Below are positions 17,673 through 54,370 of a stretch of DNA of 64,000 nt, piece by piece. The stretch comes from Escherichia phage ECBP2. The position numbers and the translations under genes are program-made. Each line of letters opens with the position of its first letter. The stretch's first letter is position 1. The notes beneath the pieces are model-generated. The model was not told the DNA's origin. It was given only the letters and a program-made list of their open reading frames with translations, and ran no database searches. The DNA is taken from sequence record NC_018859.1. One strand, 5' to 3'.

Positions 17673-18032
17673 CTAGATTAGATCATAATACTTAATAATA
17701 TCAGAGAGCTTAAACTCTCGAATGTCATTCTTGTCATTGTCCCAAGCGGTCATTATCCAACAAGGTTTGCCCCCATTATGATAACGGGAAGAAGCAACTG
17801 AGGTTCGTATAGGAACAACGGAGCGGTCTGCAATTTCACCTCTCCAATTACGATAGCTAAAGCGAAGAGTTTGTGTCGTAGATACTTGATCATTTGTATT
17901 TTCCTTGTTCATAGATTCAAAGACTTCCTTCTCTTCAGGAGTCTCTAGATTTTTTAAATTCGCGTCTTGCATCATTCTCTTCCTTAGTTTTAATCTTATG
18001 GCAAGGTTCTTTACACAAGACTTGAAAGCCAT
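17673..18032 (-). CDS. Hypothetical protein, WYL-like C-terminal pattern; start uncertain
   Basis: R..VVPIRT....Y..GGKPCWIMTAWDNDKNDIREFKLSDI resembles the WYL-domain pattern. The 5' part overlaps the upstream HNH gene, so the true start is probably an internal Met. Confidence 0.4.
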   Translation of the reverse strand: MAFKSCVKNLAIRLKLRKRMMQDANLKNLETPEEKEVFESMNKENTNDQVSTTQTLRFSYRNWRGEIADRSVVPIRTSVASSRYHNGGKPCWIMTAWDNDKNDIREFKLSDIIKYYDLI

Positions 18033-18339
18033 CTACCTCAACCAAAGCTCTCTCAATGATTTCATCCCAAGATGCTTCATGGTCCACTGGAACAATAGGA
18101 TTAATGTGGTCAACAGCTACTTCCTTAAGAGGAGAGTCATTACCACACATGGCACACTTGTAGTGCATTGCCAGCTTGCCAGTCTTAGGGTTGATCTTAC
18201 GTTCTGTCTGAGCTTCTTTGAGAGCATCAAACATAGGCTTCCACTTTCTAGTCAGAGAACGAATCCCTGACTTGATGAAGGAATTATAACGTGCTTCAGT
18301 CCACTGGTTTGAACATCTTGTTTTCTCAGCCTTCGCCAT
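17935..18339 (-). CDS. HNH endonuclease
   Basis: CAMCGN...VDHINPIVPV...QVLCKEPCHKIKT is an HNH core with flanking Cys pairs. Confidence 0.75.
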   Translation of the reverse strand: MAKAEKTRCSNQWTEARYNSFIKSGIRSLTRKWKPMFDALKEAQTERKINPKTGKLAMHYKCAMCGNDSPLKEVAVDHINPIVPVDHEASWDEIIERALVEVDGFQVLCKEPCHKIKTKEENDARREFKKSRDS

Positions 18340-18530: not shown

Positions 18531-19349
18531 TTACCAAGTTTTATCTAACCATGACCATTCAAAGAGGTCACCTTCAGCTTGTCCGACGAAGAGCAATCGA
18601 GCATTTTCTAGCATCTTAGCTTCTGCTTCTTCCTCGAACCTCTTATAGTATTCCATTCGTATAATGTGATAAAGAGTACACTTATCGAATACCTTCTCAA
18701 TAAGTTTGATTGCAGCCTTGCTACCAATACCTTTACGACGCATAACTAGGTTGCCACCCCACATCATTTCAACTTTCTCACCACATCCGGGGATGTTGTC
18801 TGTACTGTCCCCAATCAACATCTGATAGAAGAAGTTCTGCCATGCTACTTCCTCTGATACATAATGAGGAGGTACTTCTTTCTGTCGTTCACCACAAGCC
18901 CAGCGATAATGCCATCCGGGAGTGATTAACAAATCCTTATCACGAGTACAGATGATAGTGTTCTTCTCAATACGTTGTCGTTCAGCGAGTGCATCATCTG
19001 CTTCTCTACCAAACACCTCAACGTACTGATAATGTTCTTTGATGTAATCACTAACGTTCTGCCAATGATGTGGCCTTTCTCCCGGAGGTCGGTTAGCTTT
19101 GTAACCTTGTTGCTGAGCAATATCAAATCGGAAGTTACCACCTTCACTAAAATAGAAGACAGTTCTTTCACAACCAGCTCTTGAGATGATTACATCAATC
19201 TTATGTTGGAGACGTTCAATCAAGAATCCATAATCAACTGGAACACGACCTGTGTCTAGAAAAGGATGCTCTTGTGTAAGAGCACCAACCTCATACCGTA
19301 GAACATCTCCGTCCACAATCGCTACTTCTGGATAAGATATATCACTCAT
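18531..19349 (-). CDS. 5'-3' exonuclease / flap endonuclease (T5 D15 / Pol I 5' nuclease family)
   Basis: Motifs EADDALAERQ, TRDKDLL and IGDSTDNIPGCG. The start is set at MSDISYPEV (ATG 19349), which has GGAGG 5 nt upstream. Confidence 0.85.
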   Translation of the reverse strand: MSDISYPEVAIVDGDVLRYEVGALTQEHPFLDTGRVPVDYGFLIERLQHKIDVIISRAGCERTVFYFSEGGNFRFDIAQQQGYKANRPPGERPHHWQNVSDYIKEHYQYVEVFGREADDALAERQRIEKNTIICTRDKDLLITPGWHYRWACGERQKEVPPHYVSEEVAWQNFFYQMLIGDSTDNIPGCGEKVEMMWGGNLVMRRKGIGSKAAIKLIEKVFDKCTLYHIIRMEYYKRFEEEAEAKMLENARLLFVGQAEGDLFEWSWLDKTW

Positions 19350-19785
19350 GATTTCCTCCATGGTGTCGGATAAGGTGACAATTAGCACAGAGCATGACAT
19401 ATTTATCTAACTCTGCCTTAAGTTTAGGCCAGTACCGATAGTATGAAGGGTTTTCGTCTTTTGTTTGTTCATCCAGATGATGGAACTGCATAACACAAGG
19501 TGGGTATTCTTTTTTACAATCTAAGCAAACACCTCCCATGTATTCTATTGCTTTTATCTTAAGATCTCTATTTGCCTTATTAGCAACCTCTTGCCGTCTT
19601 TTTCTATTGGCAGCATACCAAGCTCTTTTCTTTTCTGCGGTACAAATCTTACAAGTTCCAGTCACACCCTTAGTGCACACCTTATTGGGGTGATATTCTG
19701 TTAGGGCTTTTTCAACCCCACAAACGTTACACACCTTAGTATCTGCATCCACAATTGCTACTTCAGGATAGATTACATCAGGCAT
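19342..19785 (-). CDS. HNH-type homing endonuclease-like protein, free-standing insertion
   Basis: Cys-rich N-terminal half plus FHHLD...K...LCANCH..RHH. Its first 15 codons duplicate those of the flap endonuclease gene. Start MPDVIYPEV (ATG 19785) overlaps the upstream stop. Confidence 0.7.
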   Translation of the reverse strand: MPDVIYPEVAIVDADTKVCNVCGVEKALTEYHPNKVCTKGVTGTCKICTAEKKRAWYAANRKRRQEVANKANRDLKIKAIEYMGGVCLDCKKEYPPCVMQFHHLDEQTKDENPSYYRYWPKLKAELDKYVMLCANCHLIRHHGGNHE

Positions 19786-20377
19786 AGAGATCTCTCCGTG
19801 TCTGTGCAATACTGTACTCTAAATACTCCACTGCCTCTTCTACAGAACCATCATTAAAGAGAAGATAGGTTGAAAGGTTCGTGCCTTCAATATAGGAACG
19901 AGAGTCTCCTTCAAAAGTACATCCATCCCGATAAATCTGAATTACTCGAACATCGAAATGCTTTTCCAGTTCTTCAACTTCTGCTTTGAATCCACCATCA
20001 GAGAAAACGATAACATCGTTCTGTCCTAGCAGTTGTTGTTGTTGAATGCTGCTAACAGCAAGTTTACCCATGCAGGTATCCCCAAACATTGGCTTCAGAT
20101 AGTTCTCACTAGTTGAAATCATCAAATCTCGAACTGACTTACCGCCCCATTCAGGACGGTTATGTTCTTTCCACTCACGGTCGTTGTACAGCTCCATGAA
20201 CTCATGAAGAGGGAGACCTAATGCAGCAGCAGCCACTCGATACATAGGCTCCTTAAAAGCCTTTACATGAGGTCTAAACTCATCGTTACCGAGTGTCTTC
20301 TCTAACCAAGAATTAGCGATTGTATCTTTACCACAACCCGGTGGTCCATTCAGAATTACTACTAATGGTTTACTCAT
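19778..20377 (-). CDS. P-loop nucleotide kinase (dNMP kinase-like)
   Basis: Walker A ILNGPPGCGKDT at the N-terminus. Size and layout match small phage deoxynucleotide kinases. Confidence 0.55.
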   Translation of the reverse strand: MSKPLVVILNGPPGCGKDTIANSWLEKTLGNDEFRPHVKAFKEPMYRVAAAALGLPLHEFMELYNDREWKEHNRPEWGGKSVRDLMISTSENYLKPMFGDTCMGKLAVSSIQQQQLLGQNDVIVFSDGGFKAEVEELEKHFDVRVIQIYRDGCTFEGDSRSYIEGTNLSTYLLFNDGSVEEAVEYLEYSIAQTRRDLYA

Positions 20378-25627: not shown

Positions 25628-25939
25628 CTACTTCTCCACCACAAAGAGGTTAACTTCAATGAAAGTTTCGTATTGTGTTGACTCCTGCTTACGGGTGTAG
25701 TAGAAATGACGACCTTCTAATGCACCTCCGTACTGAGTGGCACATCTTTTAACCATCTCTTTTATCACATCTATAACTGATACGCCTTTCCACGGACGTA
25801 ACCCATGAGTAGGAATTTCTGCTGTGCAGGTTACTTGTGTATAACCTACATCTTGTAGAGGTGTCTCAAGAATCAGCTTTGCCCAAGCATCAAAATTAAG
25901 CTTGGGGTTATATTTAACTTCAGTTTTGATATCAATCAT
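25628..25939 (-). CDS. Hypothetical protein
   Basis: 103 aa. The start overlaps the stop of the polymerase 3' exon (TAATG). Confidence 0.5.
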   Translation of the reverse strand: MIDIKTEVKYNPKLNFDAWAKLILETPLQDVGYTQVTCTAEIPTHGLRPWKGVSVIDVIKEMVKRCATQYGGALEGRHFYYTRKQESTQYETFIEVNLFVVEK

Positions 25940-26091
25940 TAGTGAGTATGATTCCAGTTTAATCCAATCTTACAATCAGATGCAAGAGGACATTCCATCT
26001 TGAGATATTCCCCTGCTTTACGGACACACTCTTCAGTGAGAGTGCGCAGAATATTAACATCATCACGATGTACAGTGAACTGGCCTTCATC
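25939..26091 (-). CDS. DNA polymerase (family A) exon 2 / C-terminal fragment
   Basis: Reads DEGQFTVHRDDVNILRTLTEECVRKAGEYLKMECPLASDCKIGLNWNHTH*, which is the remainder of motif C (HDE) plus the conserved PolA C-terminus ending in H. Confidence 0.75.
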   Translation of the reverse strand, partial: DEGQFTVHRDDVNILRTLTEECVRKAGEYLKMECPLASDCKIGLNWNHTH

Positions 26092-26698
26092 CATTCAGTT
26101 ATTCCCAAATTACTTCGGGTGTCGGACTATATCATAACAGCATAGCTAATTTGCTGTTGTTGGCGCTTCGAGGGTTTCCCTGTTAACCCCCTACTCCCTT
26201 AGGATAGTCTCTACACTTTCCACTTCCGAATCCATCTACAACCGATTCCGAAGCTCACACCAAACTTCTCTGCAAGATGTACACCAGAGCATTCTGTTTC
26301 TAGCCAATAGAGCCTTGCAGCCTCTTGCCTATCTCCATTTCTTCCAGTGTTTGATTCTATTGCATGTTCTGAACCTTCAAGCATTTCTAAGTGCTCAAGA
26401 TTGGAACAAGCTCTATTCTTGCATTTGTGATTTATTTCATAACCGTCAGGAATAGAACCAAAAGATTCTTCCCAAACATGCCTGTGATACATGACCCATT
26501 TGCCATCTATTACTTTTCTGAAATAACCATTTTTATTAAGTTTGTGTGAGATAGGGATGATACACCCTGTTTCGGTTGTTTCCAAAACAAGAGTTTTCTT
26601 AGCCATATCATCTCCTAATAGCTTAGCTCGGTATTGCCCTCAACTTAATGGTAGGGTTTCACCGAGTTCACCAACTTTTACATGCACAATGAAAGTTT
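26092..26698 (-). mobile_element. Group I intron (607 nt) in DNA polymerase motif C, carrying an HNH homing endonuclease gene
   Basis: Exon 1 ends in U. Intron nt 12-19 (GUGCAUGU) pair with the last 8 exon nt (ACAUGCAU), giving a terminal U.G wobble (P1). Intron nt 6-11 (UUCAUU) pair with the exon 2 start GAUGAA (P10). The intron ends in G. Splicing restores VIDMH-DEGQF. Confidence 0.7.
26211..26606 (-). CDS. Intron-encoded HNH homing endonuclease
   Basis: HRHVWE...EINHKCKNRACSNLEHLE (HNH_3/I-HmuI-like) with a C-terminal HTH-like segment. Own SD is AGGAGA. Confidence 0.8.
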   Translation of the reverse strand: MAKKTLVLETTETGCIIPISHKLNKNGYFRKVIDGKWVMYHRHVWEESFGSIPDGYEINHKCKNRACSNLEHLEMLEGSEHAIESNTGRNGDRQEAARLYWLETECSGVHLAEKFGVSFGIGCRWIRKWKV

Positions 26699-28393
26699 AT
26701 GCATGTCGATAACCTTCGCACAACGAACACCATCACGCTCAATCCATTTATTGAGGAATAGCATTGCATACTTCATAACAATCGCCCCAGCGCTCTGTAA
26801 GAGCGTATTTAAGGCTTTATGGACCATAACCTTTCCAGTTGCATCTCTTCTCATTGTAATACGACGTCCATCCACACCGTAGATGTATCCACTTTGTGCT
26901 TTCTCGGTCATACGTTCAATAAGGATTGCAATACAAGGATTCTCTGCTAAGAATCTTGCTCTCATAATAGCCCCTTCGTCAGAGCCACCACCTACGATAC
27001 TTCCTAGTTTAGCGTCACCTGCCCCATAGTTAAAGGCATATATAAACGTCTTAGCGTTATCGCGAGTAGGAAGACCAGCAAGTTTTTGGTTATGTGAGTG
27101 AATATCTCCTTCTAAAAGAATATCTCTGTACATAACAGCAGAAGCTAGACCACGTTCAGCTTCTCGTTTCTTAGCTGGGTTGTTTTCTCGCTCTGCTTCA
27201 GCGAGCATCTCACGACATTCTTTAATAAGGTAGTGAGCTAGCATCCTCAGCTCAAGACCAGAGCCATCGTAACCTAAGAAGATTTCACGACCAGCAGGTA
27301 CATAGAACTTATAGGCACCTACAGGTTTGTCTTTCTTGCCCGGTTTTCCCACTTCGTAGATAATGTTAGTACCTTTTCGTACGTAACACCCATCAGGGAT
27401 ATGGTTGGTAATGATGAAAGGATAGTTATGACTATCGTCTGAGGAATAGTCAGATTGAAAAAGACTGCGGCACTCGTGACCAAACAAACCGCGAGAAGGA
27501 ATATTAACAACAATACGGTGTTTAAAACGAAATGTCGGAGTAGCGCAGCTATTAGCTTCGGCGGACAACTTACCATCTTCTCGTTCCTTGTCTATAAGAC
27601 CATTAATCAAGCCAAGCCTGTGAGCCGCTACAACACGTCTCTTAAGCAAACCTCCCACACCCCCTAGCTCACCCCCAAGACCTTCTTCAAGCGTCTCCTC
27701 GAGGTTTGTAGGAGCTGTAGGCCACTTGTTTGACATGGCTAAAGCTTTCTTAATTTCATCAAAGGTTACAGGCTTCTTCCTGTTCGGATTCAAGCCTAAA
27801 CCACTGACGTAGGCTTTCATGTAGTTGACAGTGTGATAACGGAAGTGTTTATCCAAGAACCGACGAATGTCAGCATCAATCATCTCAGCTGTCTGTTTTT
27901 CTTTAGCGTTTCCTCGCATCCAAGCAGAATACCAAGCAGCATATGTGCCATACTTCTTCATCGCTTTACGGATTTCGTAAGTATTCCAAGGTTTCTTGGA
28001 TGTGTTCCACTCTGGAGGAATGAAGCCTTCATCCATCAAGGCTTCTTTGATACGTGCATCTTTCGATGGGTCGAAGTCTACATACTCAACGCAAGTAAAC
28101 GCCCCACCGATATCTTCTCTTTTAAGACCAACTCTGTCACAATAAAGCTGAGGCCACTTCTGTAAAGCACCTGACTTCTTAAAAGGTTTCGAATAAGTTG
28201 AACCATCCACCCGCATTTTGGGGAGGAGAGGAATCAGTTCTTTATCAATATTGACAATAATCTCTTTGAGAAGGTGAACAAACCACCGAGCGTTTCTTCT
28301 GTGGAAGTTGACGCCATGCTTCGCCTGCTTTGAGATTATATCAGCGACTGTCATCTCCGTTATGAAAGGTAACTTATCAGGGTTATCCATCAC
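26699..28393 (-). CDS. DNA polymerase (family A, T7-like) exon 1: polymerase domain without 3'-5' exonuclease
   Basis: Motif A YDGSGLELRMLAH and motif B DNAKTFIYAFNYGAG. The ORF reads through only 6 codons past ...VIDMH. SD AAGGAG. Confidence 0.85.
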
Positions 28394-31414: not shown

Positions 31415-31684
31415 TTAGATAACCTTGTGCTTATAGATGTTAGGGTTGAAGTAGTGCAACCAGTTTATATATTGTTTCTGTTCGAGGTAGTGCCTGCAAT
31501 CATGACAAAAAGCATGACCCAAACCTGTTTCCTCATTCAGTTTGAAATTGATAAGAAGCTTCTGCTTTCGACAGAAGCTACATGCTTTAGTGGGCTTCAC
31601 GTAATGCATCCCAAGAGATTGGATATATTTTACGAAGCTCTTCATCAATTGTTGATGCGAACACTCGTACTTCGTACTGAGCAT
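31415..31684 (-). CDS. Small zinc-ribbon protein; start uncertain (overlaps thyX 3' end)
   Basis: CSFCRK...CHDCRH Cys pairs. The true start is probably an internal Met. Confidence 0.4.
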   Translation of the reverse strand: MLSTKYECSHQQLMKSFVKYIQSLGMHYVKPTKACSFCRKQKLLINFKLNEETGLGHAFCHDCRHYLEQKQYINWLHYFNPNIYKHKVI

Positions 31685-32237
31685 GGTCTGACAGTCGCTG
31701 ACGACACAACTCTGACCAACCGTATAGAGAACCAGTCCATACCCACTCAGTGATCATACCCTGAGGTAATACGAATCGAGCTTGTTCTGGAGCAATGAAC
31801 TTAATCAATTCATCGTACGACTCAAGAGCTGTTTCATATGCTCGGTTAATCAGAACTAGTGCAGAGTTTTGTGCTCCTGTGGTGAGGAGATTCCCTGCAC
31901 CTGCATGGAGGTCCGAAGGTCTTTCAAAAATCTCTTTAGGGATGAAGAGTTCAACTGCTCCATCTTTATACCGCCGGGACATTTCGTTCCACGAGAATCC
32001 AACTTGGTGTTTATTGAGTTGTCTAGCAATTGCAATGGGAGCCTTACACCGAAAGGTGATTTGAGGGTGTCGAAAAGGAGTCACATGACGTTCCCGAGCT
32101 AAGAATTTAATCAACCGCTCGTCACGTTCGTTCAGATCACCATCTCGTGTCACACCAAAGGAAACCCTTGCTGCATTGACCACAGATTTGTCGGAACCCA
32201 TGTGCTCTACCAGTGTTGCTTTTAAAAAATCAGACAT
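31587..32237 (-). CDS. thyX: Flavin-dependent thymidylate synthase (ThyX-like, divergent signature)
   Basis: RHVTPFRH and KHQVGFSWNEMSRRY sit at the positions of ThyX H.SP.EH and RHR..S....S.R. The first and third Arg of the signature are replaced. Confidence 0.7.
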   Translation of the reverse strand: MSDFLKATLVEHMGSDKSVVNAARVSFGVTRDGDLNERDERLIKFLARERHVTPFRHPQITFRCKAPIAIARQLNKHQVGFSWNEMSRRYKDGAVELFIPKEIFERPSDLHAGAGNLLTTGAQNSALVLINRAYETALESYDELIKFIAPEQARFVLPQGMITEWVWTGSLYGWSELCRQRLSDHAQYEVRVFASTIDEELRKIYPISWDALREAH

Positions 32238-32697
32238 ACTTCAACTTCTCCTTGTTGTAAATTTCTTCTGCCTCTTCGCAAGAAGCAAAAGTTCCTAAAT
32301 GTATATTCTTACCTTTGACGCCGATAATGGCTCGATATTTATCACCAGAAGCTGTCTTACGAAGATACACACCTCTAGGAAGATTTCCTATCTTGTTATC
32401 AACATCGTACTGCCTTCTGTTATGACAGTTAGTAGATGGATTCACATCTCTTAGGTTATCAATTGAGTCATTAAGTTTGTTCTGGTCAATGTGGTCAATT
32501 TCAAACTCAGGGAATTTTCCATGAACAAAGAACCAAGCAAGACGGCAAGCTCTGTAGCTTTTCCCTTCATGCTCAATGTAACGATAACCTAGAGAAGATA
32601 CATACCCAGCTTGATTTCCTTTAACCCTTCGACCTTTTGTGTTCTTCCAGAAGAAGTCTCCAGTCTTAGGGTTGTATTCCAAGTCGTCTTGTATCAT
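32230..32697 (-). CDS. HNH homing endonuclease with AP2 DNA-binding domain (free-standing)
   Basis: IDHIDQNKLNDSIDNLRDVNPSTNCHN (HNH) and GVYLRKTASGDKYRAIIGVKGKNIHLGTFASCEEAEEIY (AP2). Confidence 0.8.
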   Translation of the reverse strand: MIQDDLEYNPKTGDFFWKNTKGRRVKGNQAGYVSSLGYRYIEHEGKSYRACRLAWFFVHGKFPEFEIDHIDQNKLNDSIDNLRDVNPSTNCHNRRQYDVDNKIGNLPRGVYLRKTASGDKYRAIIGVKGKNIHLGTFASCEEAEEIYNKEKLKYV

Positions 32698-54294: not shown

Positions 54295-54370
54295 TGGTGC
54301 ACCCTACAGGATTCGAACCTGTAACCAACGACTTAGAAGGTCGCTGCTCTATCCATTGAGCTAAGGGTGC
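54295..54370 (-). tRNA. tRNA-Arg(UCU): tRNA-Arg, anticodon UCU, CCA encoded
   Basis: Minus strand folds as a 76 nt cloverleaf: GCACCCT TA GCTC AATGGATA GAGC A GCGAC CTTCTAA GTCGT TGGTT ACAGG TTCGAAT CCTGT AGGGTGC ACCA. Confidence 0.9.

Follow-up and report, generated by a model that had tools for sequence, protein, structure and literature searches.

Gene layout of the FEN region in ECBP2

We analyzed a stretch of 64,000 nucleotides (nt) from Escherichia phage ECBP2 (NC_018859.1), a Kuravirus (phiEco32-like podophage), and focused on an HNH endonuclease gene that lies between the genes for deoxynucleoside monophosphate (dNMP) kinase and flap endonuclease (FEN). The whole stretch is referred to as the window; all coordinates are window positions, and all genes of the FEN region are located on the minus strand. 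The closest phage-collection record to the window is TH42 (94.7% identity). The dNMP kinase gene was taken from the list of open reading frames (ORFs) and spans 19778–20377; its product matches PHROG 139 (deoxynucleoside monophosphate kinase, E 5e-41), and the annotation is the same in Bas88 and 4E8. The TGA stop codon of this gene (19780–19778) overlaps the ATG at 19785–19783, which opens the HNH ORF (19342–19785, 147 amino acids). The encoded protein is an exact match to YP_006908880.1, annotated as 'HNH endonuclease [Escherichia phage ECBP2]', and can be described as a chimera of 15 FEN-derived residues and a zinc-knuckle/HNH body. The FEN (5'-3' exonuclease) gene at 18531–19349 is intact and forms a single unbroken ORF of 272 codons. 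Its product matches PHROG 107 (exonuclease, E 3e-61) and reaches 27.3 bits against Pfam 5_3_exonuc_N, which is below the cut-off of 34.3; the N-terminal acidic D-x-D is present, and the motif VDGD-VLRYE is conserved across relatives.

The HNH and FEN ORFs begin with two versions of the same 15 codons. The upstream copy U (19741–19785, MPDVIYPEVAIVDAD) corresponds to the resident FEN start codon plus codons 2–15 and doubles as HNH codons 1–15; it reads ATG CCT GAT GTA ATC TAT CCT GAA GTA GCA ATT GTG GAT GCA GAT from 19785 to 19741. The downstream copy D (19305–19349, MSDISYPEVAIVDGD) provides FEN codons 1–15 and reads ATG AGT GAT ATA TCT TAT CCA GAA GTA GCG ATT GTG GAC GGA GAT from 19349 to 19305. 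Our recount agreed with the 35 of 45 identical nt given in a preliminary description of this DNA, corresponding to 11 of 15 identical amino acids, and corrected the spacing from 440 to 436 nt. The ten mismatches are distributed over codon positions 1, 2, and 3 as 3/3/4 and cause four amino-acid changes; the former wording of divergent wobble positions is therefore only partly correct, i.e., for the four mismatches at position 3. The most distinctive change from U to D is Ala14 to Gly (GCA to GGA), which affects the middle codon of D-x-D. When all same-strand pairs of 45-mers at offsets of 60–1000 within the window were counted, only 2 of 59.7 million reached 35/45, with U/D being one of them. 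The similarity thus survived a statistical check, and a chance resemblance of U and D was ruled out by this count. Both ATGs overlap the preceding stop codon in an ATGnnTGA arrangement (ATGCCTGA for dNMP kinase/HNH, ATGAGTGA for HNH/FEN). The coupling signal was previously regarded as duplicated together with the codons, which applies to its presence at both starts but not to its origin, as the upstream one belongs to the resident junction and only the downstream ATGAGTGA is cassette-borne. Two further carriers of the cassette (Bas93 and the metagenomic L125) possess TAATATG at the upstream junction, instead of ATGnnTGA.

The segment from 19305 to 19740 (436 nt) is referred to as the cassette and comprises HNH codons 16–147, the stop codon, a ribosome-binding site, and the recoded FEN codons 1–15; its boundaries are ambiguous inside the shared tetranucleotide AGAT. 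The cassette contains neither a start codon nor a ribosome-binding site for its own HNH. As read from the sequence, U supplies the sole HNH start codon along with the translational coupling (to the dNMP kinase in ECBP2), and FEN in turn gains a new start and a new, stronger ribosome-binding site from the cassette, i.e., GGAGG at 19355–19359, 5 nt before the FEN ATG. HNH would be translated from the captured FEN initiation region and hence carry 15 FEN-derived residues. The GGAGG falls within the two Gly codons at the C-terminal end of HNH, a layout that is also found in loci L005, L007, L010, and L011, as well as in the type A loci described below. A D-type start is recognizable by ATGAGTGATATATCT...GACGGAGAT. 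FEN codons 1–15 are cassette-derived and codons 16–272 are resident; the reading frame runs from D straight into codon 16, so that FEN is still produced in full, and ECBP2 contains no bypass element. The D/FEN junction, GTG GAC GGA GAT / GTT CTA CGG TAT (19293–19316), marks the insertion point in four genomes.

Regarding the HNH protein itself, matches were obtained to PHROG 2255 (HNH endonuclease, E 7e-40) and to four further HNH or endonuclease VII PHROGs. Invariant or near-invariant positions in 39–41 homologues comprise F101-H102-H103, N112, N135, H137, H141, and the cysteine pairs C87/C90 and C133/C136, and the protein accordingly displays the His-Me finger motif FHH...N...CxNCH..H with its cysteine pairs. 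The 147-residue protein matched neither the Pfam HNH models (PF01844 and PF13392, HNH_3) nor NCBIfam, and a profile search of the PDB revealed no characterized close homologue, only McrA (E 0.49) over the CxNCH segment. An AlphaFold model reached a pLDDT of 89.7 with low confidence for residues 1–15, i.e., the FEN-derived residues are predicted to be disordered. Top Foldseek matches against the PDB were Cas9 HNH domains, the Gme HNH nicking endonuclease, Hpy99I, T4 endonuclease VII, and Cap5, all of them weak (E ≥ 0.08, TM-score ≤ 0.48). We base the HNH assignment on PHROG 2255 and the invariant motifs.

One cassette in three kuravirus FEN lineages

An empty site is present in HNH-less relatives, as expected from the insertion proposed in the preliminary description: in TH42, Bas88, 4E8, and PAS59, the dNMP kinase gene is joined straight to FEN with the same 8-nt overlap. 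HNH-less Paul, in which the cassette is likewise missing, shows the corresponding junction of another lineage. U of ECBP2 matches the FEN 5' end of TH42 at 45/45 and that of Bas88 at 44/45 positions; ECBP2 and TH42 also share the same ribosome-binding context upstream of it. Since U is fully identical to the FEN start of an HNH-less phage, we conclude that U is the resident FEN start.

We compared ECBP2 with three further carriers, namely Bas93 and the metagenomic kuraviruses L125 and L126; the four genomes cover three FEN lineages, and Bas93 has a Paul/phiEco32-like backbone with a different dNMP kinase. The ECBP2 cassette is identical to that of Bas93 at 430/436, of L125 at 423/436, and of L126 at 435/436 positions, and the FEN body (codons 16–272) at 582/774, 588/774, and 743/774 nt, respectively (TH42: 743/774). 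Among all four carriers, identities range from 423 to 435 of 436 for the cassette, from 32 to 44 of 45 for U, and from 579 to 743 of 774 for the FEN bodies. A cassette of 97–99.8% identity is therefore found beside FEN sequence that is 75–80% identical between the three lineages, in every case after codon 15. Each U and FEN body fits its own lineage, as illustrated by Bas93 in comparison to HNH-less Paul (42/45 and 717/774). Compared to D of ECBP2, D is identical in Bas93 and L126 (45/45) and nearly so in L125 (44/45); between lineages, U copies match at only 32–34/45, D copies at 44–45/45. Of the two options formerly given for the 5' copy, i.e., that an HNH cassette landing after codon 15 had carried or regenerated it, the first is supported by a D that is near-identical across carriers beside a U that is always the local FEN start. 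Regeneration does not fit a D that is 44–45/45 identical in all four genomes and travels with HNH.

The distribution of the element points in the same direction. A single 90% cluster of the HNH protein carries four different N-terminal leaders (MPDVIYPEVAIVDAD, MSDVIYPEVAIVDAD, MEDVKLPEVAIVDAD, and MEDVKYPEVALVDAD). Bas93 was the only one of 92 phage records matching the region that contains the insert, and it was also the only one of 50,697 phage records with a D-type 5' end (first 15 nt); a D-type 5' end without HNH was not found in this collection. None of the D-specific bases (GCG, GAC GGA) occurs in the five HNH-less kuravirus genomes examined, and no genome among the matching records shows a duplicated FEN start without HNH. 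The element is hence sporadic with a precise empty site, is more alike than its flanks, and occupies the same insertion point in diverged lineages, as is typical for homing genes. The same cassette in diverged flanks, four leaders, a D that never occurs without HNH, and sporadic presence are signatures of a discrete mobile cassette. By sequence comparison, the cassette repeatedly enters one codon of one gene and has moved horizontally into at least three kuravirus FEN lineages with fixed boundaries. A co-converted tract beside the cassette was not seen; the first 60 nt of the ECBP2 FEN body differ at 1 position from Bas88 and at 10 from Bas93, neither of which is necessarily the donor.

Cassette relatives, interrupted junctions, and further HNH genes

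Homologues of the HNH protein are tightly associated with FEN. All 11 homologues that were looked up by protein are encoded directly upstream of a FEN gene. Of the 15 IMG/VR loci closest to ECBP2, 14 show this order as well, and the remaining one (L029) is unreadable past an in-frame stop codon. These loci were retrieved with an alignment query, as a single-protein query of IMG/VR returned no close relatives. A FEN-like leader, M.PLID(G/A)D, was found on 52 of 94 HNH homologues. Kuraviruses harbor another type of cassette (P0006, with 58% identity and 24 members in its cluster), which occupies the same codon and brings the replacement start MSNETPAPPEIAIIDSD, and L010, L011, and the Salmonella phage PKM.Hi.22.6 (Grimontviridae) share the layout. 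In many homologues (P0011–P0076), the conserved C-terminal tail (e.g., ...KEGVDATTH) is nothing but the ribosome-binding site and FEN start, AAGGAGG...ATG CAA CCA CTC ATT GA, read in the HNH frame, and the I-D codons of this FEN start contain the TGA stop codon of HNH. HNH proteins of type A, the most frequent form among the interrupted junctions described next, are just 58–71% identical to one another, which implies that the arrangement is old. A search of IMG/VR with the DNA pattern of the type A junction retrieved two contigs only, both of which were already part of the locus set. We regard the chances as even that there is a large family of HNH cassettes specific to FEN, apparently not described so far, of which the ECBP2 cassette is the simple, in-frame form and in which junctions elsewhere are recoded.

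Interrupted junctions were found in metagenomic phages of ~50 kb with the gene order PolA...FEN...ThyX, in which the D/FEN junction is precisely the site of a short insertion in 12 of 14 distinct HNH-bearing loci. Taking other phage groups together, most junctions have an insertion, which comprises 1–7 nt and often includes a stop codon. Type A is represented by seven loci (L013, L014, L016, L018, L019, L025, and L026) with a 5-nt insertion of the form GAT TAG followed by GAT, GGT, or GTC. The other forms are GAT TCAC GTC (4 nt; L021–24), CTT C TAT GA (1 nt; L030 and L031), and CTT TAG CTT and CTG TGA CTA (6 nt with an in-frame stop codon; L020 and L028); an in-frame stop codon is also present in L128, and the phage T2S1-k141_477764 reads CTG TGA CTA. 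In L021–24, L030, and L031, the insertion places the FEN body in the +1 frame, and every insertion except for the 4-nt type ends the leader frame at once or no more than two codons later. All interrupted loci have an open FEN body (248–286 codons). Among HNH-less relatives of the ~50 kb group, the MQPLIDADVLRYE... gene is uninterrupted in 24 of 24, including one that shares 92% identity with an interrupted locus, and a junction insertion was found in none of the 25 HNH-less relatives checked. The arrangement extends to a cultured phage, i.e., the Vibrio natriegens phage Phriendly (L127; MN062185, locus 1860–2010), with an HNH homologue upstream of FEN and the junction GAC ATT CTT TGA C CTA CGT TAT GAG, in which a 7-nt insertion after D-C-D-I-L shifts the FEN body to the +1 frame. 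The gene of HNH-less Vibrio phage vB_VpP_BA6 (L129) is uninterrupted and reads GAC ATC CTA CGT TAT GAG. In GenBank, FEN of Phriendly is annotated from an internal Met only, and HNH as a 43-residue fragment.

With the exception of the 4-nt type, the insertions have the form of known low-level recoding sites, including stop-hops (a stop codon flanked by matched or near-matched codons), +5/+6 hops, and the RF2 shifty stop CUU UGA C, and a hop over the insertion would restore the spacing of D-x-D-[IV]L-x-YE. This suggests, in analogy to T4 mobA/gene 60, that the interrupted junctions could be decoded by translational hops or frameshifts; as a working hypothesis, the insertions may represent indels that confer immunity of the target site and are tolerated by such short hops or frameshifts. 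It is also conceivable that FEN is inactivated in these phages but dispensable, or that translation re-initiates in an unconventional way. Several other candidates were rejected: reassignment of TAG or TGA would leave the frame unmended in types A and B, re-initiation finds no conserved in-frame start codon, and a read-through fusion of HNH and FEN would lose the D-x-D strand and fits type A only. For type A, a conserved hairpin with slight covariation (3 pairs) was predicted in alignment A3, reaching from ~20 nt upstream of the FEN ATG to GAT TAG. In this hairpin, base pairs form between the carried FEN start (spacer and ATG) and the I-D-(G/A) codons immediately 5' of GAT TAG, and the 3' arm includes the HNH stop codon. 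The hairpin could play a role in translational coupling or recoding.

The preliminary description counted four HNH genes in the window. Besides the one upstream of FEN, those at 26211–26606 and 32230–32697 match Pfam HNH_3; the one at 17935–18339 (minus strand, 134 amino acids) has no Pfam match, and its homologues are annotated as 'HNH endonuclease' in Bas88 and Bas93 and as 'terminase small subunit' in 4E8 and PAS59. A start duplication was found at none of these three genes, whose N-termini are unlike the downstream genes. The HNH_3 gene at 32230–32697 (minus strand) overlaps the start of the ThyX (Thy1) gene (31587–32237, minus strand) by 8 nt, and its N-terminus contains no duplicate of the ThyX start. 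The DNA polymerase A gene (25939–28393, minus strand) is broken inside motif C into an ORF of 571 codons (26678–28393, ending ...VIDMH/KLSLCM*) and one of 51 codons (25939–26094, beginning M/DEGQFTV...), with the HNH_3 ORF at 26211–26606 between them. A full-length, sub-threshold Rfam match to a group I intron (26103–26708, 27.2 bits, E 1e-4) points to a probable group I intron that encodes a homing endonuclease as the cause of this interruption. The site just downstream of FEN varies among kuraviruses and harbors a Dam methyltransferase gene (4E8; L003 3025–3555), a hypothetical gene (PAS59; L004 3034–3519), or HNH_3/AP2 genes (L007 3767–4252; L010 3785–4243), so that it looks like a second insertion hotspot. 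Finally, the window contains a single tRNA gene (54298–54370, minus strand; Rfam RF00005, 73.8 bits).

Proposed homing, alternatives, and known parallels

Based on the comparison of carriers and empty sites, we consider it highly likely that ECBP2 harbors a mobile HNH cassette that carried a replacement FEN 5' end and is inserted in frame after codon 15. By analogy with characterized free-standing homing endonucleases, we infer the following steps. In mixed infection, FEN alleles without the insert would be nicked or cut by HNH at the boundary of codons 15 and 16 or in its immediate vicinity, where the putative target codes the catalytic-aspartate motif VDAD/VLRYE (GTG GAT GCA GAT / GTT CTN CGN TAT in HNH-less alleles). 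The break would be repaired from the HNH-bearing genome, with the resident 5' end pairing with the donor's U copy on one side and the FEN body on the other, whereby the cassette would be copied. The substitutions in D, above all Ala14 to Gly, would then stop re-cutting of the repaired junction. An immunity footprint of this kind is plausible, provided that it is not confined to wobble positions as formerly assumed. The middle residue of D-x-D is Ala (GCA or GCT) in all five HNH-less kuravirus FENs; carried copies encode D-G-D in the ECBP2 type and L011, and D-S-D in L007 and the P0006 type, while that of L010 keeps D-A-D with synonymous changes only. The missing co-converted flanks suggest a cut essentially at the insertion point, although later recombination could also have removed them.

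Several points weigh against this reading. The homing steps lean on the analogy just mentioned, the FEN-derived leader of HNH (peptide MPDVIYPEVAIVDADTK) is a prediction from the DNA sequence, the Pfam HNH models do not match, and HNH domains are matched only weakly at the fold level (E ≥ 0.08). In addition, no genome shows any co-conversion on either side of the cassette, which is not usual when a double-strand break is repaired and may be due to later recombination or a different mechanism of transfer.

Other explanations have to be weighed against the same observations. HNH might be an accessory nuclease that acts together with FEN, e.g., in DNA processing or phage competition, and was exchanged horizontally by ordinary recombination in co-infection, rather than a self-propagating homing enzyme. 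The tight and ancient linkage of the HNH family to FEN across unrelated phage groups would fit, cleavage by HNH is itself deduced by analogy, and nuclease genes are often located at recombination boundaries in phages (PMC10448857). However, identical single-codon boundaries in three lineages are not expected from ordinary recombination, the element is rare among close relatives, and insertion into the most conserved, catalytic-motif-coding part of the gene, along with a carried copy that is altered exactly there, are hallmarks of homing; we therefore consider this explanation improbable.

If HNH and both FEN starts were ancestral in kuraviruses, HNH-less genomes would result from repeated deletions between the 45-nt repeats. 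The direct repeats are 78% identical and could support deletion, and the gene is missing from most genomes, but deletion between U and D should leave chimeric or D-type starts. A D-specific base was found in 0 of 5 HNH-less genomes, no HNH-less record matches the first 15 nt of the D type, and vertical descent is incompatible with a cassette of 97–99.8% identity beside FEN identities of 75–80%, so that this scenario is disfavored and very improbable. It is hardly conceivable that a tandem duplication of the FEN start occurred first and an unrelated free-standing HNH gene landed between the copies, leaving the duplicate outside the mobile unit. Nothing specific argues for this order of events beyond the option left by the earlier term 'regenerated', while D is 44–45/45 identical in three FEN lineages in which U differs (32–34/45) and fits the local lineage, no genome shows a doubled start without HNH, and the HNH body lacks its own start codon.

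The mobile cassette with a carried FEN start has its nearest formal parallels in the 'homR' segment of MobA and in the in-frame endonuclease ORFs of fungal mitochondria. In T4, the HNH homing endonuclease gene mobA is located in the topoisomerase gene (MobA/gene 60; Bonocora et al. 2011, as described in bioRxiv 10.1101/2022.08.31.505936). Common to both systems are an HNH gene inside an essential replication gene at one fixed site coding a metal-binding motif, a divergent homologous replacement of the target segment carried by the element ('homR'; D in ECBP2 with 35/45), and independent insertions in several clades, each with near-identical uninserted relatives. In addition, an element-borne sequence (the gene 60 bypass) guards against re-nicking by MobA, and relatives of the ECBP2 cassette also possess short untranslatable insertions at their junctions. 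The differences concern the target, which in the MobA system is split into two polypeptides with extensions of ~44 residues and a deletion of 55–75 nt. In ECBP2, the target ORF stays whole, and the nuclease takes its own start from the resident segment, which is retained; a split target with a bypass is absent, and short interruptions are found only in other phage groups. Homology to MobA was not detected, as MobA comprises 269–279 residues in comparison to 147 for ECBP2 HNH, which has no match to HNH_3 or PF01844 and belongs to a different PHROG.

In the Seg/Mob systems of T-even phages, a small nuclease gene is located beside a conserved replication or nucleotide-metabolism gene, occurs sporadically, and is accompanied by a resistant donor allele that differs by few substitutions near the target. 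The ECBP2 locus resembles SegF, SegG, and MobE in its sporadic nuclease gene, conserved neighbor, and donor allele with few changes near the target. These free-standing endonucleases ('intronless homing') have been reviewed (PMC2988022). They differ in being intergenic with their own start signals and in co-converting flanking markers over variable distances, whereas ECBP2 shows a start-less ORF, an in-frame fusion to the first 15 codons of the target, and fixed boundaries. Allomyces atp6 provides a fungal mitochondrial example of an endonuclease ORF fused in frame to a host gene. Other cases from fungal mitochondria are the rps3-LAGLIDADG fusions (Gibb and Hausner 2005, cited in PMC7902536), and a partial duplicate of the downstream exon within an intron has also been noted. 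The likeness consists in an endonuclease ORF in frame with a host gene that is kept functional by a duplicate or replacement piece. These fusions affect the 3' end of organellar genes and involve LAGLIDADG or GIY-YIG enzymes, whereas ECBP2 combines the 5' end of a phage gene with an HNH enzyme and a captured host initiation region. Endonucleases borne by introns and inteins also insert into catalytic-motif-coding sequence of a host gene that still works, but by means of splicing, and the probable group I intron in the DNA polymerase gene of the window would be one example; at the FEN locus, splicing plays no part, and the start is duplicated and replaced. In the literature searched, the coverage of which is incomplete, we found no description of an in-frame cassette with a spare FEN start for kuraviruses or other phages.

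These findings have consequences for the annotation of related genomes, in which chimeric N-termini and 'truncated' exonucleases, like FEN of Phriendly, are by-products of the cassette. The HNH family comprises compact nucleases that probably recognize the conserved sequence coding D-x-D/VLRYE. The interrupted junctions, including that of the cultured V. natriegens phage, offer a tractable system for natural short hops and RF2-like shifts, and a handle on the question of whether recoding sites have evolved repeatedly because of homing endonucleases. If the proposed decoding is true, they would form the second natural nuclease-linked bypass system after T4 mobA/gene 60, with natural stop-hops that have so far been demonstrated only in synthetic constructs. 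For the biology of the phages, the cassette adds to the ways in which an essential gene can accommodate a selfish nuclease gene, alongside intergenic positions, introns or inteins, and gene splitting: by taking over the initiation signals of the host gene and carrying a spare start for it, a start-less element of 436 nt would be expressible in any recipient and keep sharp boundaries.

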